The notes below the pieces were generated by a model. That model worked only from the letters and a program-made list of their open reading frames with translations, made no database searches and had not been told where the DNA came from. Source: Candidatus Poribacteria bacterium (GTDB lineage Bacteria > Poribacteria > WGA-4E > WGA-3G). Taken from it: a DNA stretch of 64,000 nt. Shown here piece by piece: positions 29,748 to 64,000 of the stretch (positions within the stretch are counted from its first letter, which is position 1; each line of letters starts with the position of its first letter). The stretch covers positions 288,001-352,000 of the forward strand of contig OZ219750.1 in assembly GCA_964291315.2 (NCBI GenBank), read 5' to 3'. Both the position numbers and the translations under genes were made by a program.

Positions 29748-29910
29748 AGATCAAAGAAATTACGGCAGATATGCTGAAACAAGAGATTGACCTCTGTTCT
29801 TATACGATATGAAATTGAAGGATACCGTCTCTATACGATAAGCTGCAAGTCCTATGCAAAAAAGATGATAATCCTATATCTCACACATGAAGACAAAAAG
29901 GATGTATCTA

Positions 29911-30605
29911 TATGTCAAAGAAAAGTTTCGACCAAAAACTGATTAATCTTCTCGAAACCAACCCTAACTTTGTTGATGATAGCGGAGCATTCCATCGCCC
30001 GAGCGTCAGGCAACGGGCTTGGAAACTCGACCCCGAGCTCATTCGGACCCTGTGTACCGACGAAGAAATCGCGGCGAAGTTCTTCAAAGAGATAGCAGGA
30101 CGCTGGATCTTCGATAACAACGCCTTCGTTGATTATATCACGGATAAGAACTTCTTTGCCGACTCCTACACCCAGTTCCGCAATAGAATCGGCTTGAACA
30201 TTGATGGCAAGTATCTGCGCGAGCGTGGGGAAGTCGCCCTGGTCTGGCCGTATAAGGATTGCGTATTAGAAGGTGGTCAGACGCGCGAAGAGGAGAGGCG
30301 TAAAGAGATATTCTTCAACGAGGTTCTCGCGCCGGATGAGATAGATCGTATGTTTGATGCGAAGGTTCTGATGGGTTGGGAGCGTCATGGTGTTAGGAGT
30401 ATGGGAGGAGAGGTTGATAAGAGCGGGGGGGGTAATCTGTGATAAGCACATAGAAAATGGAACCCTCGAACTGAAGCGAGATGACGCTGGCGTTATTCGC
30501 GAGAACCTTGTCATCAAAGGCAACAACCTGATTGTCCTGCACACCCTTAAAGAGCAATTTCGCGGGCAGGTCAAACTCATTTACATCGATCCACCGTATA
30601 ATACG
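29911..30605 (+). repeat. Direct repeat, mod 5' conserved block (other copies about 31882-32680 and 35936-36733; copies 2 and 3 also share about 104 bp of upstream DNA)
   Basis: Near-identical nucleotide sequence by visual comparison. Confidence 0.92.
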
Positions 30606-31874: not shown

Positions 31875-31985
31875 ACAAACTCATTTGATGGCTTTATTTT
31901 ACCACAAAGTTCTCTTTGGACAACATTGTTAATTCTCTATCAATTCACATTACCTCACACATGAAGACAAAAAGGACACACCTGT

Positions 31986-33996: not shown

Positions 33997-34025
33997 ACTA
34001 CCTGAAGCTATCAGTATATGGATAG

Positions 34026-35486
34026 TTAAACACCAAAAAATTCCGAAATACCCTTAATAAGCTTTGAGTAAATACTCAAAGCTCCAGATGTTGTGGACAT
34101 AAGATCAACTGGGGTTTTTCGTGAATTTGAAACATGAAATATGGCATTTCGGTGCATTTTGAGTTTTCGCATTTCTTTAGAAGACGTGAATGTATCCAAT
34201 TTTCTATTGGCTAGTGAAGGATCCTCTTTTGATACAGCATAGTAGATTCTCAGAAGCTCATAAAAAAGAGCTATGTTAACCCTATATGGGGCAATCCACT
34301 CGTCACAATCTTGAAGGCTAAAACTGTTAGGGATGTCTTTACAGATGCAAGATAATTCTTCCTTACTGATTAAAGGATACTGTTTATTTTTTTCCAAAAG
34401 ACTCATATTAACTGAATTTCTTTCGTAAAGAAATTCATTCCACAGTACAACACTAGTCATTAGAATGCGCATGTAGCCTCCTATATTCTCCTTTAGATGG
34501 GTTGCATGCTCCCGGCTACCAAGAAAATTTGATATTTGCCTTCCAGATATCAACATAGCAATTATATGATGTCGCATTGCCGTTTGTTTCTCTACTAGCT
34601 CAGTAGATTGTCCATCAATAATAATAGAGGTTTCTCCTGTTAAGTATTGTGGAATGAAGTGCACTTTAGGCAAAGCCTGATCCAACTCGTTCATGCATTC
34701 TGCAATACAATAGGCTATCTTTATTTGTGTTTGGTTCGGTAACCAGGATTGAATGTTCTCTGGCAATATTTTTATTTTTCGCTTTAGTTCTGGTAACTGA
34801 TCCACACACCACTTCATGCCTGATAGGTTGTGATCAAGTTTCATTTGCTCCATCTTGACTGTTAGAAAGCTATATAGGCAATACAATTTCTGGATTTCCG
34901 GTAGGCAATTAAGAGTGTTTGACAGATAATTGGATAATTTGTCCTGCAGCCTTTGTAGGTATCCATCGAATTTGCATTGCAGGATTGGAGCTAGGTTATG
35001 AGAAGGCTTAACTTGTAAAAATTGACGTTCAGCAGAGAGACTGTCTTTATTCGGATGCAGGAAAGAATCTCGGAATTTCTTTAACCTATCAACCCACTGT
35101 TTGTTGGTTTTCAAATAAGAATCCAGTTCATCATCCCGGTAGATGTTGTGGGTTTTCTTTAATTTTTCGAAAGATTCAATTTCAGCGTAGAACAAAGCAA
35201 GGTACAGTTGAAGCGGATAAACCGTTGCATATTCGATACCAGTTCGATTAGTCTCATTATTTTCTAATCCTTGATCGTTCAGCATCTTCGATTGAATGTC
35301 TTCTATTGTTACCTCGCCTTCGTTTCTATTTTGGCAATACTCAGATGCTTCTGTAAAGTGGATCATATTACGAAATGCTATTTTACGTATGCGCTCAAGA
35401 ATGACTGTCCTATGGTAAAGTAAATTCTTATAAGGGTTAACTATGGATTGTATATTGACAATATCTAGTTTTTCAAGATCTGTCAC
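34026..35486 (-). CDS. AT-rich protein with two duplicated HEPN-like domains (putative RNase/defence effector)
   Basis: GTG start with GGAGG RBS; Rx4H motifs RDSFLH (aa 139-144) and RNAIFH (aa 446-451), each preceded by an alignable P....ALFY...K...LD...LK segment. Confidence 0.7.
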   Translation of the reverse strand: MTDLEKLDIVNIQSIVNPYKNLLYHRTVILERIRKIAFRNMIHFTEASEYCQNRNEGEVTIEDIQSKMLNDQGLENNETNRTGIEYATVYPLQLYLALFYAEIESFEKLKKTHNIYRDDELDSYLKTNKQWVDRLKKFRDSFLHPNKDSLSAERQFLQVKPSHNLAPILQCKFDGYLQRLQDKLSNYLSNTLNCLPEIQKLYCLYSFLTVKMEQMKLDHNLSGMKWCVDQLPELKRKIKILPENIQSWLPNQTQIKIAYCIAECMNELDQALPKVHFIPQYLTGETSIIIDGQSTELVEKQTAMRHHIIAMLISGRQISNFLGSREHATHLKENIGGYMRILMTSVVLWNEFLYERNSVNMSLLEKNKQYPLISKEELSCICKDIPNSFSLQDCDEWIAPYRVNIALFYELLRIYYAVSKEDPSLANRKLDTFTSSKEMRKLKMHRNAIFHVSNSRKTPVDLMSTTSGALSIYSKLIKGISEFFGV

Positions 35487-35586
35487 TTCAATTTCCTCCG
35501 TATTTGCCAGTTGATGTTTTATCCACTACAAATTGCAAATAACATAAGGTGGACTATATAGTTATCGATAATCTTATTTTGGGTAT

Positions 35587-35615
35587 AGTATAGCACAATT
35601 AAATAGGGAAATCAA
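35587..35615 (-). promoter_or_regulatory. Sigma70-type promoter for the dual-HEPN gene
   Basis: Minus strand TTGATT-N17-TATACT with an extended TG. Confidence 0.5.
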
Positions 35616-35899
35616 ATTTCGACCGGGGGTATTTAGTTTTAAAATTTCTCACTGACTGTATGATTTTAACATTAGGTGATTGTTAAACAAAAAAAAGATC
35701 CTTCGTGGTCTTGACCATTGTAACAGTTTATACAGTTTAGGGGCAATCTGAGTTATGTCTAGAAAAATGTCCGATAAATCGGCACGTGAAAAAGCAAGCT
35801 GGCTCTGCTTAGGTCAAAAATAATAAATGTAAAAAAAATAGGCGAAGAAATACAGATACCTGCTCATAAGAGAAAAAAGTCGTTTATTTCGCAGAAAAG

Positions 35900-35908
35900 T
35901 GTTATAAT
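35900..35908 (+). promoter_or_regulatory. Extended -10 promoter upstream of mod3-res
   Basis: TGtTATAAT just before the repeated upstream block. Confidence 0.45.
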
Positions 35909-36039
35909 CTATTATGAGGATTTCTTTTGGAACAACATTTGATGGCTTTATTTTACCACAAAGTTCTCTTTGGACAACATTGTTAATTCTCTATCAATTC
36001 ACATTACCTCACACATGAAGACAAAAAGGACACACCTGT

Positions 36040-38053
36040 ATGTCAAAGAAAAGTTTCGACCAAAAACTGATTAATCTTCTCGAAACCAACCCTAACTTTG
36101 TTGATGATAGCGGAGCACTCCATCGCCCGAGCGTCAGGCAACGGGCTTGGAAACTCGACCCCGAGCTCATTCGGACCCTGTGTACCGACGAAGAAATCGC
36201 GGCGAAGTTCTTCAAAGAGATAGCGGGGCGTTGGATCTTCGATAACAACACCTTCGTTGATTATATCACGGATAAGAACTTCTTCGCCGACTCCTACACC
36301 CAGTTCCGCAATAGAATCGGCTTGAACATTGATGGCAAGTATCTGCGCGAGCGCGGGGAAGTCGCCCTGGTCTGGCCGTATAAGGATTGCGTATTAGAAG
36401 GCGGTCAGACGCGCGAAGAGGAGAGGCGTGAAGAGATATTTTTCAACGAGGTTCTGGCGCCGGATGAGATAGATCGTATGTTTGATGCGAAGGTTCTGAC
36501 GTGTTGGGAGCGTCATGCTGTTAGGAGTATGGGAGGAGAGGTTGATAAGAGCGGGGGGGGTAATCTGTGATAAGCATATAGAAAACGGAAGCCTCGAACT
36601 GAATAGAGATGATGCTGGCGTTATTCGTGAGAACCTTGTCATCAAAGGCAACAACCTGATTGTCCTGCACACCCTTAAAGAACAATTTCGCGGGCGGGTC
36701 AAACTTATTTACATCGATCCACCGTATAATACCAAAGGAGATGCTAACATTTTTGGATATAACAATTCTTTCAATCACTCAAGTTGGTTGACATTTATGA
36801 AAAACAGACTTGATATTGCTCAAGATATGTTATCAGAAAATGGAGTAATAGTTGTTACCATAGATGATTATGAATATGCTCACCTTAAATTGCTATGTGA
36901 TGAGGTTTTCGGCATAAACAATTATATTGGAACTATAGTAATCCAAAACAAGCCAGGTGGTAGGACAATAAACCCCCATTTTGCTACCTGTCACGAATAC
37001 GCTTTATTTTACGCGAAAGCTATTGATAATATAAAAACAAACCTTGTCAAACTCACTAAACAACAAGAGCTGAGCTTCAACTTTAAGGATCAGATTGGCA
37101 GATATCAACTTTCACCATTTAGGCGGGGTGGAGGCTATTCAACACCTGAAGAGAGACCTAATTCTTTCTATCCGATTTACTATAATCCACATGGAAATGA
37201 ATTTTCTCTTAAGAAAAAGGAAGGATTTTTTCAAATTCTCCCCAAAGATTCACACGGGAAAAACCGAGTTTGGCGGCAGACAAAACCCTCTTTTGAAAAA
37301 TTAGTGGAGAAAGGGGAAATCGTCTGTAAAAAGTCTAAAGGCAAATGGAGCTTGTACATAAAGGATCGGATGCCAGAAGGACGGAAAACTAAAACGATAT
37401 GGACTGATTCAAAATATGACGCGTCAGCACATGGAACAATACTTCTTAAAAAGATGTTTGATGGTGAGAAAGTCTTCAGTTATCCTAAATCGATTCATGC
37501 CGTAAAAGATACTATTAATCTTCTAACTCAGCCCAACGATAAAGATATTGTGCTGGATTTCTTTGCGGGTTCAGGCACTACAGGGCATGCGGTGTTAGAG
37601 CTGAATAAAGAGGACGGTGGCGCTCGGCAGTTTATACTTGTAGAACAATTGGACAAGCACATAGCTGTTTGTAAAGAACGACTTGAGAAAGTCATTGAAA
37701 AAGAGGGGCTCCTCGGAGCAAATTTTGTCTCGTGTGAGCTGATGCCTTACAACGAAGTCTTCATGGAACGGATCCAGTCGGCGAACACCTCTGCCGAGCT
37801 ATTGAACATCTGGCACGATATGTCAGAAGATTCCGCTCTCAATTGGTACGTCACCCCGGAGCATCCAGAGGCGGCAGAGGCACACTTTATCGCTATCAAC
37901 GACGTTGAGGGACAGAGGCGGCTATTAGCCGAGCTGTTGGATAAGAACCAGTTGTATGTGCATCTCTCTGAAATAGAGGACGAAACATTTCAGGTCAGTG
38001 AAGCAGACAAAACACTCAATAAGAATTTTTATGAAGGAGATCACGATGCCTAA
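36040..38053 (+). CDS. mod: Type III R-M methyltransferase Mod, copy 3, split by a frameshift at G8 (36553-36560)
   Basis: Same architecture; YIDPPY, DFFAGSGTT; 3' end overlaps the res start. Confidence 0.9.
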
Positions 38054-40649
38054 CCTATTTCTCCATGAAGAACTCGACATCGCATTTAGCTACGGGGTAC
38101 CTAAACCTGAAATACCTGATAGCATTCTTCAAAACCTGAATCCTGCGTTTGAGCTTCGACCTTATCAAGTAGAGGCGTTTGCGAGGTCTATTCACTGTTT
38201 GAACGGAGATCTTCAGGCTAAGCAAAATCCGTCACATCTGCTGTTTAATATGGCAACCGGCAGCGGTAAGACGCTTATTATGGCGGGGCTGATCCTCTAT
38301 CTCTATGAACAAGGCTACCGGAATTTTCTCTTTTTCGTCAATGCCGACAATATCATTGAAAAAACAAAGGATAATTTTCTCAATTCGGGGTCCTCAAAAT
38401 ACCTTTTCAATGCGGACATCTATATCAAAGGCGACAGAGTTAAGGTGACAGAAGTAGAGAATTTTGAAGGAGTCAACGCAAACGACATTAACATCCGATT
38501 TGCGACAATTCAGAAGTTACACAGCGATTTGATGACAGAAAAAGAGAACGCTTTAACCTTTGATAATTTTGAGAAAGAGAGAATCGTTCTTTTGGCTGAC
38601 GAAGCGCACCACCTGAACGTCGCTGCGAGGGCACAACAGATCCAATTGGCTCTCAGCACGAAGAATTCAAAATTGGCTGGGAAGCCGACATGGGAGAACA
38701 CTGTTGAAAAGATATTTAACGCGAACGCCGGCAACTTGTTGCTGGAATTCACAGCTACGTTTGATGACAAAACCCCTGCAATTGTAGAAAAGTATCGGGA
38801 TAAAATCATCTATCGCTATGATTTAGTTCAATTTCGGAACGACAAATATTCAAAGGACATAGAGATTGTGAGGTCTGATTTCAGTCTGGAGGACCGTATT
38901 TTGCAAGCTGTTATTCTTCATTATTACAAGCAGGCAGTTGCTGCAAAACACACGATCCAGCTGAAACCGGTCATTCTGTTTAAGGGAAAAACAATACCGG
39001 ATTCCAAAAAAAATAAAGCGGATTTCCATAAACTTATGGAAAGGCTCACAAAAAATGATATTGAAAGGATTCGGAGGTCTGAAGTTGAAATTATTAAACG
39101 GGCGTTTCGCTTTTTTGATAATCATAAGATCAGTTCCGAGCAGTTGACTCGATCGCTCAAAACGGTCTTCCAGGAAAAATATTGTCTCGCTGTTAACTCG
39201 AAGATAGAGAGAGAGAAGTATCAGGTACAGGTAAACAGACTTGAGGAAAGAGACAATCCCATCCGCGCTATTTTCGCAGTGCAAATGCTCAGCGAAGGAT
39301 GGGATGTGCTGAATCTGTTCGACATCGTCCGCTGTTATGATACCGGTAGCACAGGGCATAACAAAATTGGGAAAGCGACAATTGCGGAGGCACAGCTTAT
39401 TGGGCGTGGGGCGCGTTATTATCCGTTCGCTCTGTCAGGGTACGCGGATAAATACAGGCGCAAATTTGACGAAGACATTGAACATGAACTTCGTGTGCTT
39501 GAGGAACTACATTATCACAGCATTAATGACTCGCCTTACATCACTGAAATCCGAAAGGCCCTGGTCGAGCAAGGGTTGATAGACAAAGAGACTGTGACTC
39601 GAGAGCTTAAATTGAAGGAGAAATTTAAGAAAACGGACCTTTACAAGTACGGTGTTATCTATTTGAATAAACAGGTGTCCAGAGACTATCAATATGTCAA
39701 ATCTTTTGCGGATTTGGCATCCTTGAGTGTGAAAAAGAAATGGCATGAGCATACGATTCACGAAAGCACGGGAGGGATGACGAAGATGATAGGAAAAAAA
39801 CAGACTTATGCCGTGCGGAACACAACTAGCCAAGACATAGCGATGGTCCATATTGAGCGCAATATTGTCCAAACTGCCCTCGCGCGGAATCCATTTTTCC
39901 GGTTTGCATCACTTAAGCGATATTTTCCGCAGTTGAGATCCATGAATGAATTTAGGACATCACCTGACTTTTTGGGGGGCTTGTCAATCACTTTCAAAGG
40001 AGATTTTTCCCAATTGGAAGACAGAGCATCAGAAAAACTGAAGGCGTGTTGCGATCTTTTGAAAAGAATAGAAACCGAACTTCGCCAACAAATTACCGAA
40101 TCTGAAGGTACGAAGTCCTTTCATAAGGAGCAAATCCACGCTATTTTCAAGGACAAGGCCCTGAAGTTCGATGCTAAGAACCCTCGGGCCGATGAGGATC
40201 ACGATGCTGAGCGTCTCGCGAAAGCGGAGAAATGGTTTGCTTTTGATGGGCTATACGGCACCAGCGAAGAAAAAGCCTTCGTACAATTTCTACATACACA
40301 TCTTGAAACATTAGAGGAAACCTACAGCGATATTTATCTGATCCGTAACGAGAGACATTTTTCTATTTATAATTTCCGTGACGGTCGAGCGTTCCAACCC
40401 GATTTTGTCCTCTTCTTAGGAAAGGAAGGCGGAGAAACATTGAGCTATCAACTTTTTATTGAACCGAAAGGTGAACACATTGCAGATTTTGACAGATGGA
40501 AAGAGGGCTTTCTGAAAGAAATTGATAGTGAACATAAGACTGAACTCATAATAGAGGATAAGAAATACCGTATTATCGGTCTACCGTTTTATCAGGAGAG
40601 AAAACAGAATGAATTCCGCGTTGCCCTTGATAAAGCACTGCAATTATAA
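38046..40649 (+). CDS. res: Type III restriction endonuclease Res subunit
   Basis: MATGSGKT, DEAH, EFTAT, LSEGWDVLN, QLIGRGAR; C-terminal FQPDF...FIEPKG (PD-ExK); RBS GAAGGAG. Confidence 0.93.
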   Translation: MPNLFLHEELDIAFSYGVPKPEIPDSILQNLNPAFELRPYQVEAFARSIHCLNGDLQAKQNPSHLLFNMATGSGKTLIMAGLILYLYEQGYRNFLFFVNADNIIEKTKDNFLNSGSSKYLFNADIYIKGDRVKVTEVENFEGVNANDINIRFATIQKLHSDLMTEKENALTFDNFEKERIVLLADEAHHLNVAARAQQIQLALSTKNSKLAGKPTWENTVEKIFNANAGNLLLEFTATFDDKTPAIVEKYRDKIIYRYDLVQFRNDKYSKDIEIVRSDFSLEDRILQAVILHYYKQAVAAKHTIQLKPVILFKGKTIPDSKKNKADFHKLMERLTKNDIERIRRSEVEIIKRAFRFFDNHKISSEQLTRSLKTVFQEKYCLAVNSKIEREKYQVQVNRLEERDNPIRAIFAVQMLSEGWDVLNLFDIVRCYDTGSTGHNKIGKATIAEAQLIGRGARYYPFALSGYADKYRRKFDEDIEHELRVLEELHYHSINDSPYITEIRKALVEQGLIDKETVTRELKLKEKFKKTDLYKYGVIYLNKQVSRDYQYVKSFADLASLSVKKKWHEHTIHESTGGMTKMIGKKQTYAVRNTTSQDIAMVHIERNIVQTALARNPFFRFASLKRYFPQLRSMNEFRTSPDFLGGLSITFKGDFSQLEDRASEKLKACCDLLKRIETELRQQITESEGTKSFHKEQIHAIFKDKALKFDAKNPRADEDHDAERLAKAEKWFAFDGLYGTSEEKAFVQFLHTHLETLEETYSDIYLIRNERHFSIYNFRDGRAFQPDFVLFLGKEGGETLSYQLFIEPKGEHIADFDRWKEGFLKEIDSEHKTELIIEDKKYRIIGLPFYQERKQNEFRVALDKALQL

Positions 40650-53990: not shown

Positions 53991-55256
53991 ATGAATATTA
54001 CTGTCTGCAATCCGTTGTTGAGAACCCCATTGTCCCTTATTGTTGACGATTCGTGTCCGGTAATCAACCTCACGTATTATTGGATACACCAGCGACACGC
54101 TTGGAAATCACGTCACCAGCCCGGCGTTCCACCAGAACGTTGGGAGGGCGCTGCTGCTCAACTGAAAAAGATACCCCCCTCAATCCCCGCTGATTTTGCT
54201 TATGAGTGGGCGGAATGGTGTTGGGAAAACGGTGTAAAAGGCAAATTTAGTCTCGTTCCATATCCTGCCGGGGTCGGACGTGTCGATGAAGGGTTCCCCG
54301 ATTTCCCAGCATACGAGTATCAGGCATGGCTGCGGATTTACCGAGAGATCATCTGGCCAAACTTCGATTTAACGCCGGAGATGCTTACCCATACTGCTGT
54401 CGTTGATCTGGATACATTCACGCTCACCGATGCGTGGGAACAGGTGGAATGGGTAGATCCGCCGGTTGATAACAGACTGACGGACTACATCATCACAGCG
54501 ATGGAAATGCTTGATAATGTCGGTATTCCTTGTGAGGGCGTAACGAGTCCCGGGGCGTTCGGAAAACGCCAAGAGGCTGCGTATGCGAAAGCTGTGCTAA
54601 CTGCTTCACAACACGTCAATAATAACCCGCGTCCGTTCTATTTTCTCTGGCTCAAACATGATGAACTTCCGGATATCCCTATCTGGTATGCTGAAAAAGA
54701 GAAAGGCATCGCTATTGCTAGTGTTGTTTCGTGTGCGGGCGACTGGTTCGGCGGTTGGACGGGCTACGATTTGGGCGATGCTGACCGATTCATTACCGAA
54801 GACGGACAAGGCGGCCGGCTGCCACCGATCCTCGAAAAGGAACTTCCGTGTGTCCTTGTCGGACACTGGCCAGGGTTCTATTTCAACGGTGAAAAAAGTG
54901 GATTTGAGGTGCTGAAGACCGTTAAAGCACGACTCGATAATTATGATCCGGACAGCACCAAAACAATCTGGATGAAACCCTCGGAGATCGCTCACTATTG
55001 GATGGCACGCCAACTCACTGATATTAAGACGCTTGAGCCTCCAACGCGGATTGACCTCTCCACGCAATTCCCGACAGAAAATTTCACACTGGCTATCGAG
55101 GCACGCCTCCGACATATCCGAATCAACGGTTGGGACCTGCGCCAAGTATATGCTCTACGTGACTTTCAGAAAGATACTTTTCTGCATGACGGGCAGCAGA
55201 CATTCGTCGCCTTTGACTTGGAAGTCGGGGATACGATTCTTGAGTTGATACTATAG
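53991..55256 (+). CDS. Hypothetical protein, possibly polysaccharide-deacetylase-like barrel
   Basis: Long ORF; LIVDD, GKFSLVPYP, PEMLTH, GVTSPG, HW, WMKPSEIA. Confidence 0.6.
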   Translation: MNITVCNPLLRTPLSLIVDDSCPVINLTYYWIHQRHAWKSRHQPGVPPERWEGAAAQLKKIPPSIPADFAYEWAEWCWENGVKGKFSLVPYPAGVGRVDEGFPDFPAYEYQAWLRIYREIIWPNFDLTPEMLTHTAVVDLDTFTLTDAWEQVEWVDPPVDNRLTDYIITAMEMLDNVGIPCEGVTSPGAFGKRQEAAYAKAVLTASQHVNNNPRPFYFLWLKHDELPDIPIWYAEKEKGIAIASVVSCAGDWFGGWTGYDLGDADRFITEDGQGGRLPPILEKELPCVLVGHWPGFYFNGEKSGFEVLKTVKARLDNYDPDSTKTIWMKPSEIAHYWMARQLTDIKTLEPPTRIDLSTQFPTENFTLAIEARLRHIRINGWDLRQVYALRDFQKDTFLHDGQQTFVAFDLEVGDTILELIL

Positions 55257-55353
55257 CGGTCTTTGTATTCCTGTTTATAGGACGAGAGGCGTTTATTACC
55301 TGTTTGGTCTGCATATTGGCAACGGAGATCGGGATACTGGCTGCCGACAGCTC

Positions 55354-56103
55354 TTAGGGAATAAGGAGGCGTCCCCCGCTTGCGATCACCGTCGAGCCGG
55401 TCATATAACTCGACTCCTCGCTTAAGAGGAACACGATAACGTCGGCCATCTCTTGCGGTTCACCCAGTCTGCCCAGGGGCGTGGTGGACCGAAGCTGCTC
55501 CACCATTTCTGGCGACACCTCACTTAACATGTCCGTTGCAATTGCGCCCGGTGCCACCGAATTGATGCGGATGTTATGGCGTGCTAGCGGTCCGCAACAG
55601 GATTTCGTGAGAGAGATAATTCCGGCTTTCGCCGCTGCGTAAGGCAGTTGATCCGGGCGAACTGCCAAGGCAGCGATAGAGGAAACATTAACGATACGTC
55701 CAAACTGCTGTGCGATCATCCCGGGTTTAACTGCCCATAGCACATTGAAGGGCCCCGTCAGGTTAATCGCGATAATCCGATCCCAGTGTTCAGGGGTGAG
55801 CTCTTCAAACTCTATATCGCCCACATCCCCGGCATTGTTCACTAATACATCTATCTGTCCAAATTCTTGGGTCACTGTTGTGACCATCTTGTTCACGGCT
55901 TCTCTATCGGCAATATCTGCCTGCACCGGTAGTGTCTGTTGTCCGAGGTCTCGGATCTGCTCACAGACCTCTTCTGCTTTGGCAGCTGAGCGTGAGTAGT
56001 GGACAGCAACCGTCGCGCCTTCCGCTGCCAGTTTAAGTGCTGTCGCCTTTCCGATACCCCGACTTCCGCCGGTTACCAACGCGACCCTTCCCTGGAATTT
56101 CAT
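55354..56103 (-). CDS. FabG-like short-chain dehydrogenase/reductase
   Basis: TGGSRGIG, NNAG, YAAAK, TPLGRLG. Confidence 0.93.
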   Translation of the reverse strand: MKFQGRVALVTGGSRGIGKATALKLAAEGATVAVHYSRSAAKAEEVCEQIRDLGQQTLPVQADIADREAVNKMVTTVTQEFGQIDVLVNNAGDVGDIEFEELTPEHWDRIIAINLTGPFNVLWAVKPGMIAQQFGRIVNVSSIAALAVRPDQLPYAAAKAGIISLTKSCCGPLARHNIRINSVAPGAIATDMLSEVSPEMVEQLRSTTPLGRLGEPQEMADVIVFLLSEESSYMTGSTVIASGGRLLIP

Positions 56104-56394
56104 CGGCCCTCACCAACCCTCCGTATGATAACATTTTGATTTGCGTTCTTTAAATATACCGCAAGCGCCAACGCAAGTCAATATCTAAACATGTCAAACC
56201 GGGTATACAGTTTTTGATTGAGGTGTGCTTGCCAGAAGTGCCGCATTGTGGCATAACCTGTTGGGTTGTGCTTCTTCCTGATTCAGAGAGTCTGTTTCTA
56301 AACTATTACCCACCTCTTTGCCAATTTCTTAAAAAAAGCAAATTTTTTTTGCCTCGATGACCTTTTCTGTCATTTTCAAGGTCTTGTTGTATGA

Positions 56395-56952
56395 ATGGAC
56401 GCAAAAGACCTTGAAAACATCTCAGATAACGTTTTACTCGCCCGGATTCAAAACGGAGATGATGATGCACTTGTAGCCCTCATTGAAAAATATGAGCGGC
56501 TCCTCAAGACTATTATCTACTATGAAATCGGTAATCCCGAGGAAAAAGCGGATATTTATCAAGAGACCGTCCTCGCGATTGTGCGGCGGATCCGCAGGCA
56601 AGCAGAGGGAATTCGTTCTGTTAAACAGTGGGTAAAACAGATAGCGCGTAGTAAGTGCAAGGCATTCCTAGTAGATGCCAAGAAACGTGGCATCGTCAGG
56701 GACTGGGCTGAAGATTACTATGCCCTCAGGACTGATCAGCAGGAACAAAAGTCTGAAAACGTTGATCAAATTTTAGACGTGGTCGAGGAGATGGGTTCCA
56801 TTTATGTAGAGGTTGTTGAGTTGTGGGCGGACGGACTGACGGAGGCTGAATCAGCAGAAGTGCTGAATATTTCGCCAAACACCGTAAAGTCTCGGCGGAA
56901 CAAGATACGAAAGGTCGCCCGTGAACGTTTCGGTGTGTCGGTTTCCAAGTAA
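56395..56952 (+). CDS. ECF-type RNA polymerase sigma factor
   Basis: GDDDALVAL, DIYQET, W...IAR region 2; GLTEAESAEVLNISPNTVKSR region 4 HTH. Confidence 0.9.
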   Translation: MDAKDLENISDNVLLARIQNGDDDALVALIEKYERLLKTIIYYEIGNPEEKADIYQETVLAIVRRIRRQAEGIRSVKQWVKQIARSKCKAFLVDAKKRGIVRDWAEDYYALRTDQQEQKSENVDQILDVVEEMGSIYVEVVELWADGLTEAESAEVLNISPNTVKSRRNKIRKVARERFGVSVSK

Positions 56953-56954
56953 TT

Positions 56955-57133
56955 TGGTTGTACCGTGACTCAACTGAATAAACATTGACTAGATTTTAAG
57001 ATTGACAATTTTTCTATAAGGTGTTAACCTAATTGGCAACCTCGCTTTTTTATTTCTGATTAGGTTGGCATCCTATTTTACATAGGTGTGAGCTTTTTCG
57101 GTTCGCCCCTTATATCACAATAAGCGGATTGCT
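56955..57133 (+). promoter_or_regulatory. Duplicated promoter plus structured 5' leader, copy A
   Basis: TTGACA(57002)-N17-TAACCT with extended TG; 42-nt block 57092-57133 identical to 62329-62370. Confidence 0.75.
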
Positions 57134-57206
57134 AGCGAAGGCAAAATTTTCCTTTTTACCATCTGATAGCAATTCCTTTAAAGATAAAATGTTAGGAGAC
57201 CTTCCA

Positions 57207-57590
57207 ATGATCAGAAGAAAAAGAAACATTCTTGTATCGCATCTTCTATTGCTTGTTTTGTTCAGCACCCCTTTTCTAATGATTTGCTCGATACAAGAGG
57301 CGGATGCTTGGTTCATGCACCAGACCAATTGTAGGTCGGAATTCGAAATCGGGGCTTCTGCCGGTGCTGAAATCGATAAATTTGGGCCTAAGGCCAAAGC
57401 TGAAGCCAAAGTGAGTTTTAAGGTTGTGTGTGATACGGAGTTTCACTGGAGTCCCTTCCCACACGGCGACGATGATGATGACTCCTCTTCCGGAAGTTGC
57501 GACGATGACTCCTCCGGGAATTACAGCACGTCTCCGTGGTGCCTTAGATGCAGCGGTTCGATACACGTGGGACGATGTCCGGAGTTTTAG
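57207..57590 (+). CDS. Small secreted Cys-rich, Asp/Ser-rich protein (127 aa)
   Basis: AGGAG RBS; signal peptide ending EADA; six Cys in the mature part; DDDDDSSSGSC/DDDSSG repeat; C-x2-C-x4-H-x3-C tail. Confidence 0.75.
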   Translation: MIRRKRNILVSHLLLLVLFSTPFLMICSIQEADAWFMHQTNCRSEFEIGASAGAEIDKFGPKAKAEAKVSFKVVCDTEFHWSPFPHGDDDDDSSSGSCDDDSSGNYSTSPWCLRCSGSIHVGRCPEF

Positions 57591-57670
57591 TATTCCTCCA
57601 AAGGAGATTGGTGTATATACTGTGAGGAGGAACATTGGAGCTGTAATTTCGGTACCGGTTTGGTAACGCC

Positions 57671-57692
57671 GGTGAAATGGATTCACCTTTTT
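57671..57692 (+). terminator. Intrinsic terminator after the small secreted protein, followed by a second hairpin at 57697-57731
   Basis: GGTGAA-ATGGA-TTCACC-TTTTT; then CTCGGAGCGTT...AACGTTCCGAG. Confidence 0.6.
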
Positions 57693-57780
57693 CAGCCTCG
57701 GAGCGTTTCCTTGAAACAGGAACGTTCCGAGATCACAACGACAACAGTATGTTAGCGTTTTTTATTTTTTATCTGAGTTT

Positions 57781-57915
57781 ATGAGCGAGATAGATCTGTT
57801 CCTACAGAGATTAGATGACCTTCTCATCTTCCTCTCCATTGTCTTTGGAGGGTTTATCATAGGTTTTTTCCTCCTCGTGTGGCTGGTTTTATGGTTCTAT
57901 AAGAAACGTAGGTAA
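57781..57915 (+). CDS. 44-aa single-TM small protein (below the ORF-track cut-off)
   Basis: MSEIDLFLQRLDDLLIFLSIVFGGFIIGFFLLVWLVLWFYKKRR; hydrophobic stretch plus basic tail; weak RBS. Confidence 0.5.
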   Translation: MSEIDLFLQRLDDLLIFLSIVFGGFIIGFFLLVWLVLWFYKKRR

Positions 57916-58008
57916 AACGTCTATGCGGGAAATCGCAATATTTTGACAGAAAAGGAGGAAGACTGTCTTTGGTTGAGTCAATTCAATATGGACAGTCCCA
58001 AAATGTAA

Positions 58009-58860
58009 ATGAGATTTCTAAATGTGTGTCTATTCATTTTTATGCTTTGTGGTATTGGTCTCTATGCGGTTCACCCGCATGCAGATCATTCTGCTACATC
58101 TGGTGATCATACCGTGCTCTATAAAGGTTCCTCCGCCCCTTGGCAAACAGAGCTGCAAGCGTTTCAGAAACTTCTGAAGACGGACGCTTCCGCTGCGAGG
58201 GCCGAACTTCATGCCTTTGCTGAAAGAATCTTTGGAGACCATGCACTCGTTGAAGAATGGGTGCCCCTCTACTTCCGGATCCGAAAAGACGGTACCACCC
58301 ATCTTTCTGATCTCAAGCGTGTCTCGGAACTCGAAATTCGCATGCTGGAGCGTATTGATCCGGAAAAATATGCCGAGCAGATACAGCATCACCAAAAAAA
58401 GATCAAACGTTCGAGTGTTTCTCGTCAGAAGGGAAACGAGTCTGCTCCAACGGGAGCCCTCAAAGGCCAATGGAGTTCTCCTACCCTGACGGCATTTGAA
58501 AGTGGCGGTGAATTTTTCATCAACTTTGTTAACTTGTTGACTACGGACCTGAAAGCCGCGCGCGCCGAACTCAACAAGTATGCGTCTCAGCGATATGGAG
58601 ACCATCCGCACAAGGCAGAATGGACTGAACTTGTCTTTCGCAACTTCCGCGACAAAAAATCCAAGATTTTGGACTTGATGCGGCTGTATGAGTTGGAAAA
58701 GCAGATGCTGACAGACATTGACCCTGAAAAGCATGCCGATGGAATAAAAAATCTTGAGCGAATCATTAAAATCCACGAACGTCTGCAAAGAAATTTTGAA
58801 CGTCAAGGGACACCTAACCCAACCATCGGTGTTGAGTTTAATCTAACAACAGAAGATTGA
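58009..58860 (+). CDS. Exported hypothetical protein with two helical repeat domains
   Basis: Signal peptide; LLKTDASAARAEL and LLTTDLKAARAEL repeats; paralog of 7806-8648. Confidence 0.78.
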   Translation: MRFLNVCLFIFMLCGIGLYAVHPHADHSATSGDHTVLYKGSSAPWQTELQAFQKLLKTDASAARAELHAFAERIFGDHALVEEWVPLYFRIRKDGTTHLSDLKRVSELEIRMLERIDPEKYAEQIQHHQKKIKRSSVSRQKGNESAPTGALKGQWSSPTLTAFESGGEFFINFVNLLTTDLKAARAELNKYASQRYGDHPHKAEWTELVFRNFRDKKSKILDLMRLYELEKQMLTDIDPEKHADGIKNLERIIKIHERLQRNFERQGTPNPTIGVEFNLTTED

Positions 58861-58877
58861 GAAAAAAGGAGTCAGAG

Positions 58878-59612
58878 ATGAAATCTATGACCACACTCTT
58901 CCGCGTCGGTAGTGTGATAGTGCTTATTTGCATAGGGGTTTGGCTTTACGTCGAGTGGGATCTGAAACGGTTTAGGGAATCGCTACCCTCCTCGTCTCAG
59001 AGAACTGACGAACGCTCGCTTGAACACTTCGCACCCGCCGTCTCCGAAGGAGAACGGAATGGAACAGGAGCCGCTTCATCCGCCGAACTTGACACAGCGC
59101 CTATAGACCGAGACACCGGGGTACTTGAAAGCGAAAGCCGCGTTGCTAGCACTGAGACAGATGTGCTTTTTGATACAGATCCACAATTCAGAGAAGCCCT
59201 TCTTCCCGATGCGGACCTCCCGGAGGTGTCCAATGGAGATGGACCCCGTGAGGCCCCGTACGACTTGATGTTCGTCAAGGCGGGATATGCAGATTACAAC
59301 GCCTATCTGAATACTGATCCCGAATATGCTTACCGAAGGCTTGACGATGCGTTCCGCGAACAATTCGGTGATTCCCCCGATGTTGACATTCTGCTTGAAA
59401 GCGTTCGCCGCTACAATGAAGGCCCCGTGCCAATAGACACGGCAATTCGGTTCGCGGAGGCACAGTTACGACTTCTCTCCAAGTTCGGGTATCCTGAACC
59501 TATAGCAGTACTCCAAGATCACATTGAGATGCTTCGAGAAACGCGGCAATACGGCTTGGAATCTGGGGAGGAAGTTCTCTATCAGAATAACTACCGCTTT
59601 GTATCGGAGTGA
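58878..59612 (+). CDS. Membrane-anchored hypothetical protein with acidic linker and a divergent copy of the helical domain
   Basis: AGGAG RBS; N-terminal TM; YLNTDPEYAYRRLDDAFREQFGDSP. Confidence 0.72.
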   Translation: MKSMTTLFRVGSVIVLICIGVWLYVEWDLKRFRESLPSSSQRTDERSLEHFAPAVSEGERNGTGAASSAELDTAPIDRDTGVLESESRVASTETDVLFDTDPQFREALLPDADLPEVSNGDGPREAPYDLMFVKAGYADYNAYLNTDPEYAYRRLDDAFREQFGDSPDVDILLESVRRYNEGPVPIDTAIRFAEAQLRLLSKFGYPEPIAVLQDHIEMLRETRQYGLESGEEVLYQNNYRFVSE

Positions 59613-59615
59613 CGG

Positions 59616-59975
59616 ATGAAACGTTTGTTTGTTTTTTTGAGTTTAGTGCTTTGCGTGGCGGGTGTCGTTTTTTACTTACCGCTGCGTGACTCTGCTCCCT
59701 CAAAAATTGCACCCCTGTCAAATCAAGATAAGAGAGACATCCTCGAAAATCAGACGACACCTTCCCAGGAAAAGGAATGTGCGTGCTGCCAATCCACATT
59801 AGAGAAGATAAAACGTAAGCGGCAGGCACTAGAAATGTGGGCTCGGGAGAGGATCAACATGTATGGGTACGAAGAAGGAATGAAGCGCATCTCGGAGAAA
59901 TCGGCTACATTGGCAAAACGGATGCAAACCCTCCTTGAAAAAGAAAAAGATGCTAACGGATTCCCCGCTCCGTAG
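59616..59975 (+). CDS. Small membrane-anchored protein with a CACC motif
   Basis: N-terminal TM; KECACCQ followed by a helical region. Confidence 0.68.
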   Translation: MKRLFVFLSLVLCVAGVVFYLPLRDSAPSKIAPLSNQDKRDILENQTTPSQEKECACCQSTLEKIKRKRQALEMWARERINMYGYEEGMKRISEKSATLAKRMQTLLEKEKDANGFPAP

Positions 59976-62022
59976 AGAAAAAACGTCCCTGTTTAGGGGC
60001 ACATTTTTTTTCATGAGCGCATGGGTGTTGATCTTTGCTGTTCTAATGCTCGCCTTCTGGATCCGTATCCAAGGCGTAGCGCAGCTACCGGAGGGTCAAT
60101 TCACCGAGACCGATGCCTATTTCTACTACTGGCAGGCAGAGCTTATTTCAGAACACGGGCACCTCCCTGCCCGCGATATGCACCGCTGGCTGCCCGTCGG
60201 TAGAGATTTAGGGCAGACGCTGAATCTCTACGGTTACGTCCTTGCTTATGCTCATAAAGCTGTTGCAGCGGTTTTTTCGAAGGTCACGCTCTACCATGTG
60301 ACTGTGTATTTGCCAGTTATCTGCTTTTGCGTCGGGCTCGCGGGGCTCTGTCTTTTTCTTTACCACATCTACGGTCCCCTCTTTTCGAGTGTCGTTGGTG
60401 TGCTTTTGGCAACGCTACCTGGCAGTATAGAACGCAGTGCTGCCGGTTTCGGGGACCGGGACGCTTTTTGTCTGATGCTCGGCCTCCTTGCTGTCCTTTC
60501 ATATCTTGCCGCGCGACACGCCGAAACGCGACGCAGTCGCCTGATTTGGACCCTTACCAGCGGATGTTTTGTCTTTTTAGGCGGCATCAGTTGGGAAGGG
60601 TTCGGTGTCTTTACCAGCATCATAATTCTCGTTGAGATATGGCGTTTTCTCACATCCGAAAGAGAAGAAGAGTTCGGTCTGTACGCCCTATGGGTGCTCC
60701 TCTTCGTTCCAACCCTGTACCTTGTCTCTCCAGCCTATCGGAACGGATATGGTTTCGCAGAACACCTCTTTGCGTTTGTGCTTGTGCCTCCGGTTGTGCT
60801 TCTGGGTCTCCGCGCACTCCGAAAACAGCTGCTTGTCAGATCGGAAAAACTCCGATCACATGCCCCGACTTTGTCCCTCGTTTTGATACTTGCTAGTCTT
60901 GCAATTACACTCGTCTATGTTTGGGGTCAATTGGACACCTTCGCCGATACCACTGTCCCGCTGAGTAAGAAACCTGTCATGCAGGCGATGACAGAACTCC
61001 GGGCACCGCATGCCCGTTATTGGACTGCTCGTTATGGCTGCGTGTTTATTGTAGGAAGTCTCGGCTTTGTCCTTATACCATTTTCGCTCTGGAAAAAGCG
61101 GGGTCTCTTCTTGTCTATACCGCTAGCACTCTTTACGGCTACTTCCTTCTACCGTGCCTCGTTGGAGAACGTGTGGGGGGAATCTTTTGGGAATGCCCTC
61201 TTCGGTAGTGCTATTGTGGTATGTCTACTCATACTTATGTTTTTCCCGTGGCAGCGAAAAAACAGTGAAGGCCCGTCAGAACTTGTTTCTATTGCCTTCA
61301 CAGTGTGGTTTATTGCTTGGGTCGCGCTTTCCCGCGATGCAAAACGTTATGACTTCTTTATCGGGGTTGCCCTTGCCTTCGGAGCAGCAACGTTCATAGG
61401 AACGTTTTCAAAAATCGTTCTCAATAAAATCAGAGTGCGAACGAAGTATCCACACTCTCTGCGTTACCTAAGAGGCAGCATCACAGCTTTGTTACTCATC
61501 GTTGTTATGTTCTTTCCTTCGCCTTTCGGGCATGCCAATCGGTCAATATATGCAGCAACTCGGATGCGAAAGGCTCTCCCTGGCAGGACAGTGATTGCAG
61601 AAGCCTTCCGTTGGATGAACTCAAATCTGCCGCGTGATGCTATTGTCGCAGCAGATTGGCGTTACGGCAGCCAACTCAACGTACTCGCCGGTGTCAAAAC
61701 TATTATAGATCAAGACACCTACATACAAGACTGGATACATCTTTACCATAAACATGTTGTCTATTCGAGGACCCAACGCGAGGCTTTGGAATTCTTGAAA
61801 ACCCACGGAGCAACACATCTGATGTTAGTCGGACAACATCCTGCGAAGCATTTCCTCAGGGGGCACCCCGGCGATGCGTTCGTTCCAGTCTATCCAAGAA
61901 ACAACTTTTCTGGTGCAACACTAAACCTCTGGGAGCTCCACTATCCCCCGGACATCCAAACCGATCCGAAATACCTGAAAACCGGTTTCCAAGAGATAGA
62001 TGCAGCATTACAACGACACTGA
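59950..62022 (+). CDS. STT3/AglB/PglB-like oligosaccharyltransferase (GT-C) with atypical DWRYG motif
   Basis: FTETDAYFYY, RWLPVGR, PGSIERSAAGFGDRD, SWEGF, AMTELRAP, KRY, EAFRWMNSNLP.DAIVAADWRYGSQL...TIID in the STT3 order; many TMs; start uncertain (59935/59950/60013). Confidence 0.82.
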   Translation: MLTDSPLRREKTSLFRGTFFFMSAWVLIFAVLMLAFWIRIQGVAQLPEGQFTETDAYFYYWQAELISEHGHLPARDMHRWLPVGRDLGQTLNLYGYVLAYAHKAVAAVFSKVTLYHVTVYLPVICFCVGLAGLCLFLYHIYGPLFSSVVGVLLATLPGSIERSAAGFGDRDAFCLMLGLLAVLSYLAARHAETRRSRLIWTLTSGCFVFLGGISWEGFGVFTSIIILVEIWRFLTSEREEEFGLYALWVLLFVPTLYLVSPAYRNGYGFAEHLFAFVLVPPVVLLGLRALRKQLLVRSEKLRSHAPTLSLVLILASLAITLVYVWGQLDTFADTTVPLSKKPVMQAMTELRAPHARYWTARYGCVFIVGSLGFVLIPFSLWKKRGLFLSIPLALFTATSFYRASLENVWGESFGNALFGSAIVVCLLILMFFPWQRKNSEGPSELVSIAFTVWFIAWVALSRDAKRYDFFIGVALAFGAATFIGTFSKIVLNKIRVRTKYPHSLRYLRGSITALLLIVVMFFPSPFGHANRSIYAATRMRKALPGRTVIAEAFRWMNSNLPRDAIVAADWRYGSQLNVLAGVKTIIDQDTYIQDWIHLYHKHVVYSRTQREALEFLKTHGATHLMLVGQHPAKHFLRGHPGDAFVPVYPRNNFSGATLNLWELHYPPDIQTDPKYLKTGFQEIDAALQRH

Positions 62023-62195
62023 GCAGGCGGCAAACATCATATCAGAGCCATTCAATTGTTGATACTGGTTTTTTGAATGATGTTGAGGGGGTTCCCTGGA
62101 TGTGCGCAAGCAAATCGTCATAAATTTTTGCGATGTGCGTATGGTCAGAGCCGCAGGAGCGTGAGGGTGGTATTGCGTAAAGCTGCCGTCACTTG

Positions 62196-62370
62196 TGGTT
62201 GTACTGCGCCTCAGCGAAATAAACATTGATTAGATTTTAAGATTGACAATTTTTCTATAAGGTGTTAACCTGATTCGCAACCCTCTTTGTGACGTTTTTA
62301 GGTTGGCATCCTATCTTACTATTTGCGGGCTTTTTCGGTTCGCCCCTTATATCACAATAAGCGGATTGCT
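62196..62370 (+). promoter_or_regulatory. Duplicated promoter plus structured 5' leader, copy B
   Basis: TTGACA(62243)-N17-TAACCT; same hairpins as copy A. Confidence 0.75.
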
Positions 62371-62476
62371 TGTCTCTCCTTTGGATTTTCCAATTTTCCA
62401 TCAGTGTAAACTGTCACTATAAGTTGAATCCGATTCGACACAAACGTGTGTCGAAAGGGATAAAGGAGCATATCTA

Positions 62477-63142
62477 ATGCTAAGAAAAAAGTTTTACATT
62501 CCAATCGGACTCGGGATCCTTGCGATAGCTGCGATAGGTTTCCTGTCTCTACGCTCGGATGTGTCAGATGGACTAGTTAAGGTTTACAAAGCAACCAAGC
62601 CCGTTGCTAGATCATCGGGTTCATCCTCCGCTGCCACCGTAAAAACGTCATTTTCTGCATCGCCTCCACTAGATACTTATGAAGCAGGACACGAGACACC
62701 CCTGTCTGGGAGTGCGTCTGATACTTATACAGATAGTGAACCGCAGGGTAACGAGGAGATCGAGATTGAACAGTTGCGGGCTGAGGTAGCTGATTTGAAA
62801 AAGATTATCGCAGAAAAGCGTGCAATCCTTACAGAGGTTAAGAACTTTAATGCGTGGGTAGAACGAGTGGATCTACGGTCTTCTTTCTCGGAGCTTTTGT
62901 CTTTACGTTCTTTACCTACAGAGGAGATTCGCGAGAAGTACTCTGCGGCGGAATTTCGGGCGATTGCCGTTGATAATGCCTCGCGCTTCAATGCGATTCG
63001 CGACGAGTTTTTGACTCGCGTTGAAAATTACTCACCCGGGGCAAGAGCTATCATTTATGAGCAGATTCATTCGGACCCGGTGTCGAGTCAGATCTACCGT
63101 GATTATATTGAAAACCCATGGGTAGATGGGGTACCGAAATGA
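62477..63142 (+). CDS. Membrane-anchored hypothetical protein with Ser/Thr-rich linker and coiled coil
   Basis: AAGGAG RBS; MLRKKFYIP plus TM; low-complexity linker; IEQLRAEVADLKKII coiled coil. Confidence 0.75.
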   Translation: MLRKKFYIPIGLGILAIAAIGFLSLRSDVSDGLVKVYKATKPVARSSGSSSAATVKTSFSASPPLDTYEAGHETPLSGSASDTYTDSEPQGNEEIEIEQLRAEVADLKKIIAEKRAILTEVKNFNAWVERVDLRSSFSELLSLRSLPTEEIREKYSAAEFRAIAVDNASRFNAIRDEFLTRVENYSPGARAIIYEQIHSDPVSSQIYRDYIENPWVDGVPK

Positions 63143-63306
63143 AAATTCTTTGGAAATCCGCTATCCTATTATCTTTGGCGTTTTTGATAGTTTGCTTCTC
63201 TGCTTCAGAGGCGGATGAGGAGGTTGAGATATTGAAACGGGACCTTAAGAGCAGATAAGACGTAAGCAGCGGGCACTCGAAATGTGGGCTCGGGAGAGGA
63301 TCAACT
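63139..63306 (+). pseudogene. Chimeric remnant: signal-peptide start joined to a fragment paralogous to 59616-59975
   Basis: 63253-63306 (AGATAAGACGTAAGCAGCGGGCACTCGAAATGTGGGCTCGGGAGAGGATCAAC) closely matches about 59806-59858; early stop in the ATG frame. Confidence 0.65.
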
Positions 63307-63331
63307 TCATAGGGGTCTTTTTCGAGACGTT

Positions 63332-63710
63332 TTACTTCGTCGGTCTCGGTAAAAACAGTTCAAAGTCGAGGGACACTTTTACTTTCTCGGTTTCAAGAGA
63401 TCCTTGTTTTTTGAGTAGTTTCTCGAGGCTCTTGAATTGTTTCAAAGTGTTTTCGGTGGCTTGAATCTGTTCTTTATATGTTTCGGCATCTGTTTGCTTC
63501 ATTAACTGAAGGTGCAGCGTTGTGAACGCAATCGTATCTGGATAGGTGGCCATTTCCTGAGTGGCGACTTTCAACAAAGCATCGACGAATGATTCGGCGA
63601 GCGGGTTGTTGTTGTATTGCTTTGCGACGTGTTTGATGAGTAGTTTGCGCGCGGCATCGGGATCGCGTGCGTAAAATGCTTTAAAATCGTTTTCTTGAGG
63701 GTTGCCGCGG
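63332..63710 (-). pseudogene. 5'-truncated member of the helical-domain exported protein family
   Basis: Frame extends upstream of the called ORF as DFKAFYARDPDAARKLL...QYNNNPLAESF...TDAETYKEQI, with no start codon or signal peptide before an in-frame stop. Confidence 0.6.
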
Positions 63711-64000
63711 CTTTTATGAGAAAAACAGCGTGGAAACCCGCAGTTTGAGATCTAACTATTTTATCAAGCTCATGTTATAAGTAGGAATGACAAGACTTGC
63801 ATTCGTTTGGATGTTCTCCTAAATGTCGTCCGTTTTTGACAGGTTTCTTTTTTGGACCTGAAGTGTAATGATGCTTTCCTCTCAGGCCGATTGGAAGCTT
63901 AGTCGAAATACCAACTCTATAAAAACGTGAGTTGGTTTATAAATGACTGAGAAGAGAGGGGTTTCAACAGTTGTATCCCGACTGTAGGCAGCGGGTTTTG

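Follow-up and report, generated by a model that had tools for sequence, protein, structure and literature searches.

A recurrent Poribacteria gene cassette joins an STT3-like transferase lacking the WWD motif to variable small secreted proteins

The DNA considered here is a 64,000-nt stretch of a Candidatus Poribacteria genome (contig OZ219750.1, positions 288,001 to 352,000 of the forward strand; the whole stretch is called the window), and our subject is a gene cassette near its end that was originally predicted to be a dedicated protein-glycosylation module. An extracytoplasmic function (ECF) sigma factor, a small secreted protein, two tethered helical proteins (h1 and h2), a protein with a CxCC motif (h3) and an STT3-like transferase of glycosyltransferase fold class C (GT-C) are encoded in one co-oriented cluster on the + strand; all genes were re-found where they had been placed, and everything behind the sigma factor is indeed predicted to be exported or membrane-bound (Table 1). 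The sigma factor passes Sigma70_r2 of Pfam (36.3 bits) and TIGR02937 (53.3 bits), both above cut-off, and consists of regions 2 and 4 only. The small gene has an AGGAG ribosome site and encodes a signal peptide ending in ADA and a mature part with six Cys, in which a core closed by Cys (HxxNC...CDxExH) is followed by a tail rich in Asp and Ser; the protein belongs to no Pfam family, and a database search returned no homologue. h1, h2, h3 and the more distal h4 each begin with a hydrophobic segment, and none of the four has a Pfam family above cut-off. No glycosyltransferase or flippase gene adjoins the cassette.

Table 1. Features found between positions 56,395 and 63,305 of the window
Feature	Positions	Strand	Basis
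ECF sigma factor, 185 aa, without fused anti-sigma domain	56395..56952	+	Pfam/NCBIfam above cut-off
Upstream block: promoter-like site and conserved cis element	56955..57200	+	copies in contig; element common to cassettes of other genomes
Small secreted protein, 127 aa, proposed acceptor	57207..57590	+	sequence; homologues in equivalent slot
Terminator-like hairpin and second stable hairpin, 3' of small gene	57671..57731	+	z -3.74
Open reading frame of 44 aa with a single transmembrane (TM) segment, doubtful	57781..57915	+	absent from the original prediction
h1, exported, two copies of a four-helix domain	58009..58860	+	homologue search, model
h2, TM anchor, acidic S/T/P-rich linker and one helical domain copy	58878..59612	+	h1-h2 profile match
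h3, TM anchor, CxCC motif and basic helix	59616..59975	+	family recurs 5' of STT3-like genes
STT3/AglB-fold GT-C transferase, 669 aa (open frame from 59935)	60013..62022	+	Pfam STT3, model, conserved residues
Second copy of upstream block	62196..62370	+	87 nt at 90% and 47 nt at 96% identity to first
h4, tethered helical protein, partner family F18	62477..63142	+	family hidden Markov model, E 1.5e-7
Frameshifted remnant of h3-like gene	63139..63305	+	repeat match

That the enzyme is an STT3/AglB-like transferase with an intact catalytic center, as had been proposed, is supported by its fold and by six invariant residues. It passes the Pfam STT3 model (51.2 bits against a cut-off of 24.5), its predicted structure has a local confidence (pLDDT) of 93.9 and a predicted template-modeling score (pTM) of 0.94, and in the fold comparison (VIA) its nearest neighbors are yeast STT3 (Z 31.4, root-mean-square deviation 3.2, 509 aligned residues), AglB (Z 29.0) and PglB (Z 24.4), with DPY19 (Z 22.3) and ArnT (Z 21.6) ranking below them. 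None of the residues D34, R141, D148, D150, E328 and R445 varies among the 103 full-length members of its clade, which are 44-68% identical to the window enzyme. This set leaves out L107, L108, a truncated copy on contig C2 and 17 loci of a longer clade; D34, R141, D148/D150 and the WWDYG position were aligned to STT3A, and E328 and R445 were assigned by motif and invariance only. In a review, D56, R147, D154, D156, E319 and R375 of PglB are given roles in catalysis, metal binding and donor binding (PMC7226087). A catalytically dead scaffold or decaying relic would agree with the frequency of broken copies, which make up two of the four loci of the clade in this genome and include many fragments in related genomes, but we give this explanation hardly any weight in view of the six active-site residues kept without exception across such divergent sequences.

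The center that would read the sequon, by contrast, has not been kept. To our knowledge, WWD is regarded as strictly conserved in oligosaccharyltransferases (OSTs) and is taken to explain the N-x-S/T rule structurally; according to the same review it binds the +2 Ser/Thr of the sequon (PMC7226087). WWDYG is replaced by DWRYG in the window enzyme, and an intact WWD occurs in none of the 103 clade enzymes. Its Asp is kept in eight of them and its first Trp in none, the latter having given way to Asn (36), His (33), Asp (12), Arg (9) or one of seven other residues. For the DK or MxxI motif that completes the Ser/Thr pocket, the alignment to STT3A stops at residue 605, and no DxxK was seen beyond this point, where no residue-level structural alignment was made. 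Because the cassette clade forms a single branch (support 0.999) amid WWDYG enzymes (FastTree, midpoint root, 79 sequences), the loss of WWD looks derived, and because the motif is missing the enzyme is predicted to work without the N-x-S/T rule. We suggest from these sequence patterns that it is under selection for catalysis and should not be classed with the canonical N-OSTs.

The homologues are assigned to Candidatus Poribacteria by their sources. Of 96 genomes in the same family, 94 contain a Pfam STT3 match, compared with 0 of 11 and 8 of 27 genomes in two other families, while the window enzyme itself matches 23 of 24 genomes of its genus, up to 30 times each (matches, not copies). The expectation of paralogous clusters elsewhere in this genome, which is 95% complete, was correct: further cassettes are present, and no WWDYG protein was found in it. 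A longer STT3 sister group from other Poribacteria genomes (880-970 aa; L091-L106, L109) has mostly kept WWDYG, with some independent partial decay of WWD, and adjoins exported proteins such as DUF1573, carboxypeptidase-regulatory-like repeat and multiheme cytochrome c554-like proteins, sometimes together with a GT2 glycosyltransferase and a flippase.

The synteny anticipated by the original prediction, with a variable small secreted gene upstream of the enzyme, does recur. The loci compared were 60 of the highest-ranking full-length matches among same-genus genomes, 20 further loci chosen for length and diversity and 40 held-out Pfam STT3 loci, and neighborhoods were counted in those other than L001-L030, whose flanks are 1.5 kb. 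A gene was scored as small and Cys-rich if it lay within 6 kb upstream and its product, 60-185 aa long, had a hydrophobic segment at the N-terminus together with four or more additional Cys. Such a gene precedes the enzyme in 38 of 51 discovery loci and in 22 of 38 held-out loci (one of these a false positive), against 6 of 285 long open reading frames of this genome taken as controls, two of the six being STT3 loci themselves. Pooled over 87 loci, the small gene is present in 59, a tethered helical partner in 55 and one or the other in 78; several loci are orthologous, and thus these counts do not represent independent events. The small gene is the commonest companion: 23 of its 59 loci are without a known helical-partner family, and in L036, L044 and L089 it abuts the enzyme. 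Many genomes contain several divergent enzyme copies, each in its own cassette, and the small proteins belong to many unrelated families, each with its own partner set. In 39 of 51 loci the small gene is followed by a hairpin with z of -2 or lower (mononucleotide shuffles). One family of small proteins, F8 (L037-L052, L058, L060, L061; 16 members), is predicted to form a helical hairpin with six Cys, has a conserved Ser in its tip loop and is glycocin-like in outline.

The window cassette has its own relatives among these loci. A homologue of the small protein occupies the equivalent slot in L139 (tblastn E 1.6e-6) and a weaker one is found in L120, and the relatives precede h1-h2-h3 in each case, with an STT3-like enzyme in L120 and with an unrelated GT-C of the Pfam PMT_2 type and a flippase-like gene in L139 and L144; in L144 the order runs from the small-protein homologue through h1, h2 and h3 to the PMT-type enzyme. 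The two closest homologues of the sigma factor among the fetched loci (L180 and L220; 66-68% identical) directly precede cassettes of a secreted protein and a GT-C, and they head different cargo, L180 apparently at the same chromosomal site. The window cassette is best explained as one copy of a mobile, modular Poribacteria cassette.

Sister cassettes in which the PMT_2-type enzyme occupies the enzyme slot were found in 51 of 112 genomes. A small Cys-rich gene is present in 18 of the 35 such loci whose upstream DNA is long enough, and in 39 of 44 examined loci a GT2 and/or a flippase of the LPG-synthase type follows downstream. This genome has PMT_2-type cassettes at C1:215843-221244, C4:25465-31676, C3:200116-205984 and C4:1743187-1745762 (L141-L143, L179), in part with GT2 and LPG-synthase-type flippase genes. 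The lack of such genes had been taken as a feature of the system; this is true of the window cassette but not of the system, as a GT2 or CDP-alcohol transferase follows the enzyme in 30 of 80 STT3 loci (GT2 in 14 and CDP-alcohol transferase in 17, within 2.5 kb). The CDP-alcohol phosphotransferase (L032, L034, L047, L053, L054, L064 and others) stands mostly in place of a GT2 and may make a different lipid donor.

The two enzyme types differ in the composition of their mature small proteins. In 35 non-redundant proteins from STT3-type and 22 from PMT-type cassettes, Asn makes up 5.6 versus 3.5% (p 0.001) and Thr 6.3 versus 9.6% (p 0.0004). A held-out repeat (n=21) gave 5.3% Asn (p 0.019) and 5.7% Thr (p 0.002), or p 0.055 and 0.007, respectively, without near-relatives of the discovery set. 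The partners do not have this Asn contrast, h2 containing 3.4% Asn in STT3-type and 4.8% in PMT-type cassettes. We treat the contrast as a lead: it would fit N- and O-linking enzymes acting on the small proteins, and relatedness can mimic it. A family-stratified permutation test of Asn minus Thr (p 0.0012) is not relied on, since its largest family was chained and redundant. A common Ser-rich motif as the acceptor signal was rejected, Ser being high (10.3%) but equally so in PMT cassettes, and no fixed residue context around Asn stood out in the small proteins.

The original argument from N-x-S/T sequons did not survive. The sequons listed do exist, but their numbers are those of chance: 30 against 27.5 +/- 4.8 expected in the small proteins (observed/expected 1.09), 50 against 57.7 in the partners (0.87) and 42 against 36.0 +/- 5.2 in the pooled set. 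Neighbors of WWDYG enzymes are likewise not enriched (65 against 67.0, or 0.97), which makes this a weak test. Canonical glycosylation of the neighboring proteins could draw on the presence of at least one sequon in every neighbor, on the preserved catalytic Asp/Glu pair and on the fact that both STT3-linked homologues of the small protein have a sequon and the PMT-linked one has none (n=3); set against chance-level counts and the complete loss of intact WWD from the clade, it appears quite improbable.

We favor, at a little better than even confidence, the interpretation that the enzyme is a dedicated, sequon-relaxed periplasmic transferase that would act on the variable secreted miniprotein of its own cassette. 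Several observations weigh against it. In C. jejuni PglB, the single changes W457S, W458R and D459V in WWDYG each abolish activity (PMC3527161), so the acceptor of the clade may not be a peptide Asn, and known relaxed PglBs still require N-X-S/T (PMC4894442). An ECF gene lies upstream in only 29 of the 87 STT3 loci, a sigma-54 activator being found in 16. Downstream, only the 30 loci already mentioned have a donor-type gene and none has a flippase-type gene. By our filter 28 of 87 loci lack a small Cys-rich gene, and h1-h2 pairs occur without a small gene or GT-C in L112, L113, L116, L117, L119 and L121, which does not suit a fixed module. As for composition, the Asn/Thr contrast was found post hoc among kin that are not independent, and it agrees in direction in five of six matched homologue pairs without reaching significance (p 0.22, 0.16). 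Asn in STT3-linked small proteins is barely above the exported-protein background (4.6%), and the window small protein, with only two Asn in its mature part, is not Asn-rich.

Two alternatives concern the acceptor. It might not be a protein but a lipid or a surface glycan, as for GT-C enzymes of the ArnT/Emb type, with the genes clustering only as envelope cargo behind regulators. The need of PglB for WWD in peptide N-glycosylation, the CDP-alcohol phosphotransferase behind the enzyme in 17 of 80 loci with its hint of lipid chemistry, the cargo swapped between genomes behind related ECF genes and the nine of 87 loci with neither small gene nor partner all speak for it. We nevertheless regard it as unlikely, as the nearest folds are protein OSTs, well above ArnT and Emb, the link to the small gene is about 30-fold over control, and two unrelated GT-C families share one slot while the Asn/Thr content of the small protein differs with the enzyme type.

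It might also be that the acceptors are the Ser/Thr/Pro-rich linkers of the partners, in O-linkage, or exported proteins in general, with the small protein as a passenger or ligand. S/T/P-rich linkers are typical targets of O-glycosylation, and the linkers of h2, h3 and h4 are long and rich in S/T/P/E (Thr 8.0% and Pro 6.6% over 66 partners). Furthermore, 19 of the 28 loci without a small gene do have partners, and the lack of a WWDYG enzyme in this genome would leave room for a wider duty of the clade. However, the small gene occurs without any known partner family in 23 of 87 loci, and the several divergent copies per genome, each in its own cassette, fit dedicated use; we would be rather surprised if the linkers or exported proteins at large were the acceptors.

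The tethered helical proteins may present the small protein. h1 and h2 have a helical domain in common (profile match probability 85.8, E 5.4e-6), the h2 family has 18 matches in this genome, and h3 family members lie 5' of the STT3-like gene in 28 of 87 loci. A foldase-like role is proposed for h1 and h2; five of 66 database homologues of h1 carry a fused TlpA-like thioredoxin, and h3 has the CxCC motif. Fold searches with h1 gave no clear match (best Z 6.7, no Foldseek E of 0.001 or lower), which is not proof of a new fold, and the h2 domain had no usable match in the ESM Atlas. Modeling lends weak support to binding of the small protein by h2: the predicted complex scores 0.45 against 0.02 for the best control, with a partner pLDDT of 51-53 and runs that agree in at least 2% of contacts. 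Of 157 solved pairs, 116 reach the mark set for such scores, as do 2 of 215 mismatched pairs, and scores of 0.60 or below include only 18 solved pairs but both mismatches. A pass of this kind is likelier to be wrong than right if binding was not already probable. As to other relatives, a stand-alone h1 paralogue (31% identical) lies at 7806-8648 of the window behind two HEAT-repeat lipoprotein-like genes, and C4:3077803-3108228 is a 30-kb island of tethered helical proteins that also contains a 902-aa protein resembling, by eye, a class III lanthipeptide synthetase, a double-glycine Cys-rich peptide with a C39/DUF1573-like protein and, at 3100772, a signal peptide of the small-gene type fused to h1.

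On the interpretation of a dedicated transferase for the cassette's own miniprotein, we speculate that the process would run as follows. The ECF sigma factor likely switches the cassette on, and the small gene would be made in excess, as the hairpin behind it suggests. After Sec export and disulfide formation, the small protein may be held by the tethered h1 and h2 in a foldase-like manner, with h3 offering its CxCC motif. The sugar would come from a lipid-phosphate donor (polyprenyl-phosphate), made by a GT2 beside sister cassettes or elsewhere in the genome. No sequon would set the specificity, which would instead depend on the tether and on a peptide-binding loop that is reshaped and variable. 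For the acceptor atom, we place about half of our confidence on an Asn amide and about a third on a Ser/Thr hydroxyl, and the product would probably be a variable, glycosylated surface or secreted protein. A bolder proposal, which we advance only tentatively and hold to be less probable than its failure, is that the clade is a sequon-independent N-OST: the WWD pocket would have been given up, and the enzyme would instead glycosylate Asn in hypervariable, disulfide-rich miniproteins that are its cognate substrates and are presented to it by the tethered partners, with N-linking (STT3) and O-linking (PMT) modules being swappable and the Asn or Thr of the substrate following the enzyme. If this were true, the miniproteins would form a class similar to ribosomal peptides but tailored outside the cytoplasm.

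The cassette shares traits with several known systems. With AglB, PglB and STT3 the enzyme has in common its whole-length fold, the metal-binding and catalytic residues and the pyrophosphate-binding Arg; here, in contrast, WWD is lost and variable, genomes contain many paralogues that each share a cassette with a small secreted gene, no pathway cluster of the pgl/agl type is present, and the neighbors are not sequon-enriched. In the clusters of glycocins such as sublancin and glycocin F, a dedicated glycosyltransferase likewise accompanies a small secreted peptide with disulfide bonds, and these systems rely on cytoplasmic GT-A enzymes, double-glycine leaders and ABC/C39 exporters. The present system differs in its periplasm-facing GT-C and Sec-type signal, and no GT-A of the glycocin type, double-glycine leader or C39-ABC exporter was found in 56395-63142. 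Lipase-specific foldases (Lif) are encoded beside an exported lipase and consist of a TM anchor, a flexible linker and a helical domain. The partners resemble them in layout, with no sequence or fold match to solved helical domains and with binding weakly predicted. In its proposed working the cassette resembles the pilin cassettes of P. aeruginosa (pilA-tfpW-tfpX and pilA-tfpO), in which a variable exported substrate and allele-specific accessory genes are followed directly by a dedicated membrane transferase, TfpW is a GT-C, and the donor is made elsewhere (10.1101/2020.04.19.049825). The order of a transferase downstream of a variable exported protein and accessory genes is the same here (59/87 against 6/285), with the substrate role being our own proposal. 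Yet the cassette is not a member of that group: its small protein is no pilin and has a Sec-type AxA signal peptide and several disulfides, its enzyme is of STT3 descent in a slot that swaps with a PMT_2-type GT-C, and it includes an ECF sigma factor and tethered partners.

Poribacteria are known from sponges. No description of this cassette was found in a literature search that had most subscription papers and all supplements outside its reach, and queries on Poribacteria with oligosaccharyltransferase, STT3 or ECF sigma returned nothing related. The sole paper matching one query concerns a Methanosarcina plasmid AglB. More than 100 sequences in which the catalytic center is invariant and precisely the two sequon-reading residues vary amount to a natural test of an OST without its pocket, with the candidate substrate encoded next door. 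Glycoengineering may also draw on them for enzymes that follow new site rules, and the cassettes suggest that this uncultured phylum makes a large and variable set of modified miniproteins for secretion.

Regulation may be encoded in the block ahead of the small gene. Of the consensus promoter and terminator claimed on its two sides, the latter stands as the hairpins of Table 1, while the former (TTGACA-17-TAACCT, 57002-57030, read from the sequence) is a part match only and is not listed by a promoter scan, which gave 7 sites against 10.9 expected by chance. The block (180 nt) occurs three times in its contig, the third copy lying just past the window (C1:353680-355980, L150) and being followed by an 82-aa TM open reading frame, a tethered helical protein and a Yip1 protein. 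L150 also has a 103-aa hydrophobic, bacteriocin-like secreted peptide. Within the block, a conserved element at about 57087-57167 (again at 62319-62370) is present in 20 copies in 18 of 83 STT3 loci, 14 of the 20 lying within 60 nt of a small secreted gene, and it precedes the small gene in both STT3-type and PMT-type cassettes. It consists of an imperfect palindrome, a CCTTATA word and a GGATTGC...GCAATCC inverted repeat, followed by the ribosome site, and an operator, an ECF promoter and an RNA leader are candidate readings. A conserved RNA structure was rejected, as the MAFFT alignment gave no consensus fold or covariation, and so was an integron attC or dif site seen by eye, because the spacing does not fit. 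An Rfam scan of 55000-64000 gave a single chance-level match.

h4 had been counted as part of the operon. It is preceded by its own upstream block with no small gene in front, and owing to this block and to the frameshifted h3-like remnant behind, we treat it as a separate, decayed unit. The 44-aa open reading frame has no homologue among the fetched loci or elsewhere in the genome. Farther away, in a type III restriction-modification locus at window positions 29808-40649, one res gene comes after three tandem mod genes, each of which is split into two open reading frames at the same place, possibly by programmed frameshift or phase variation.

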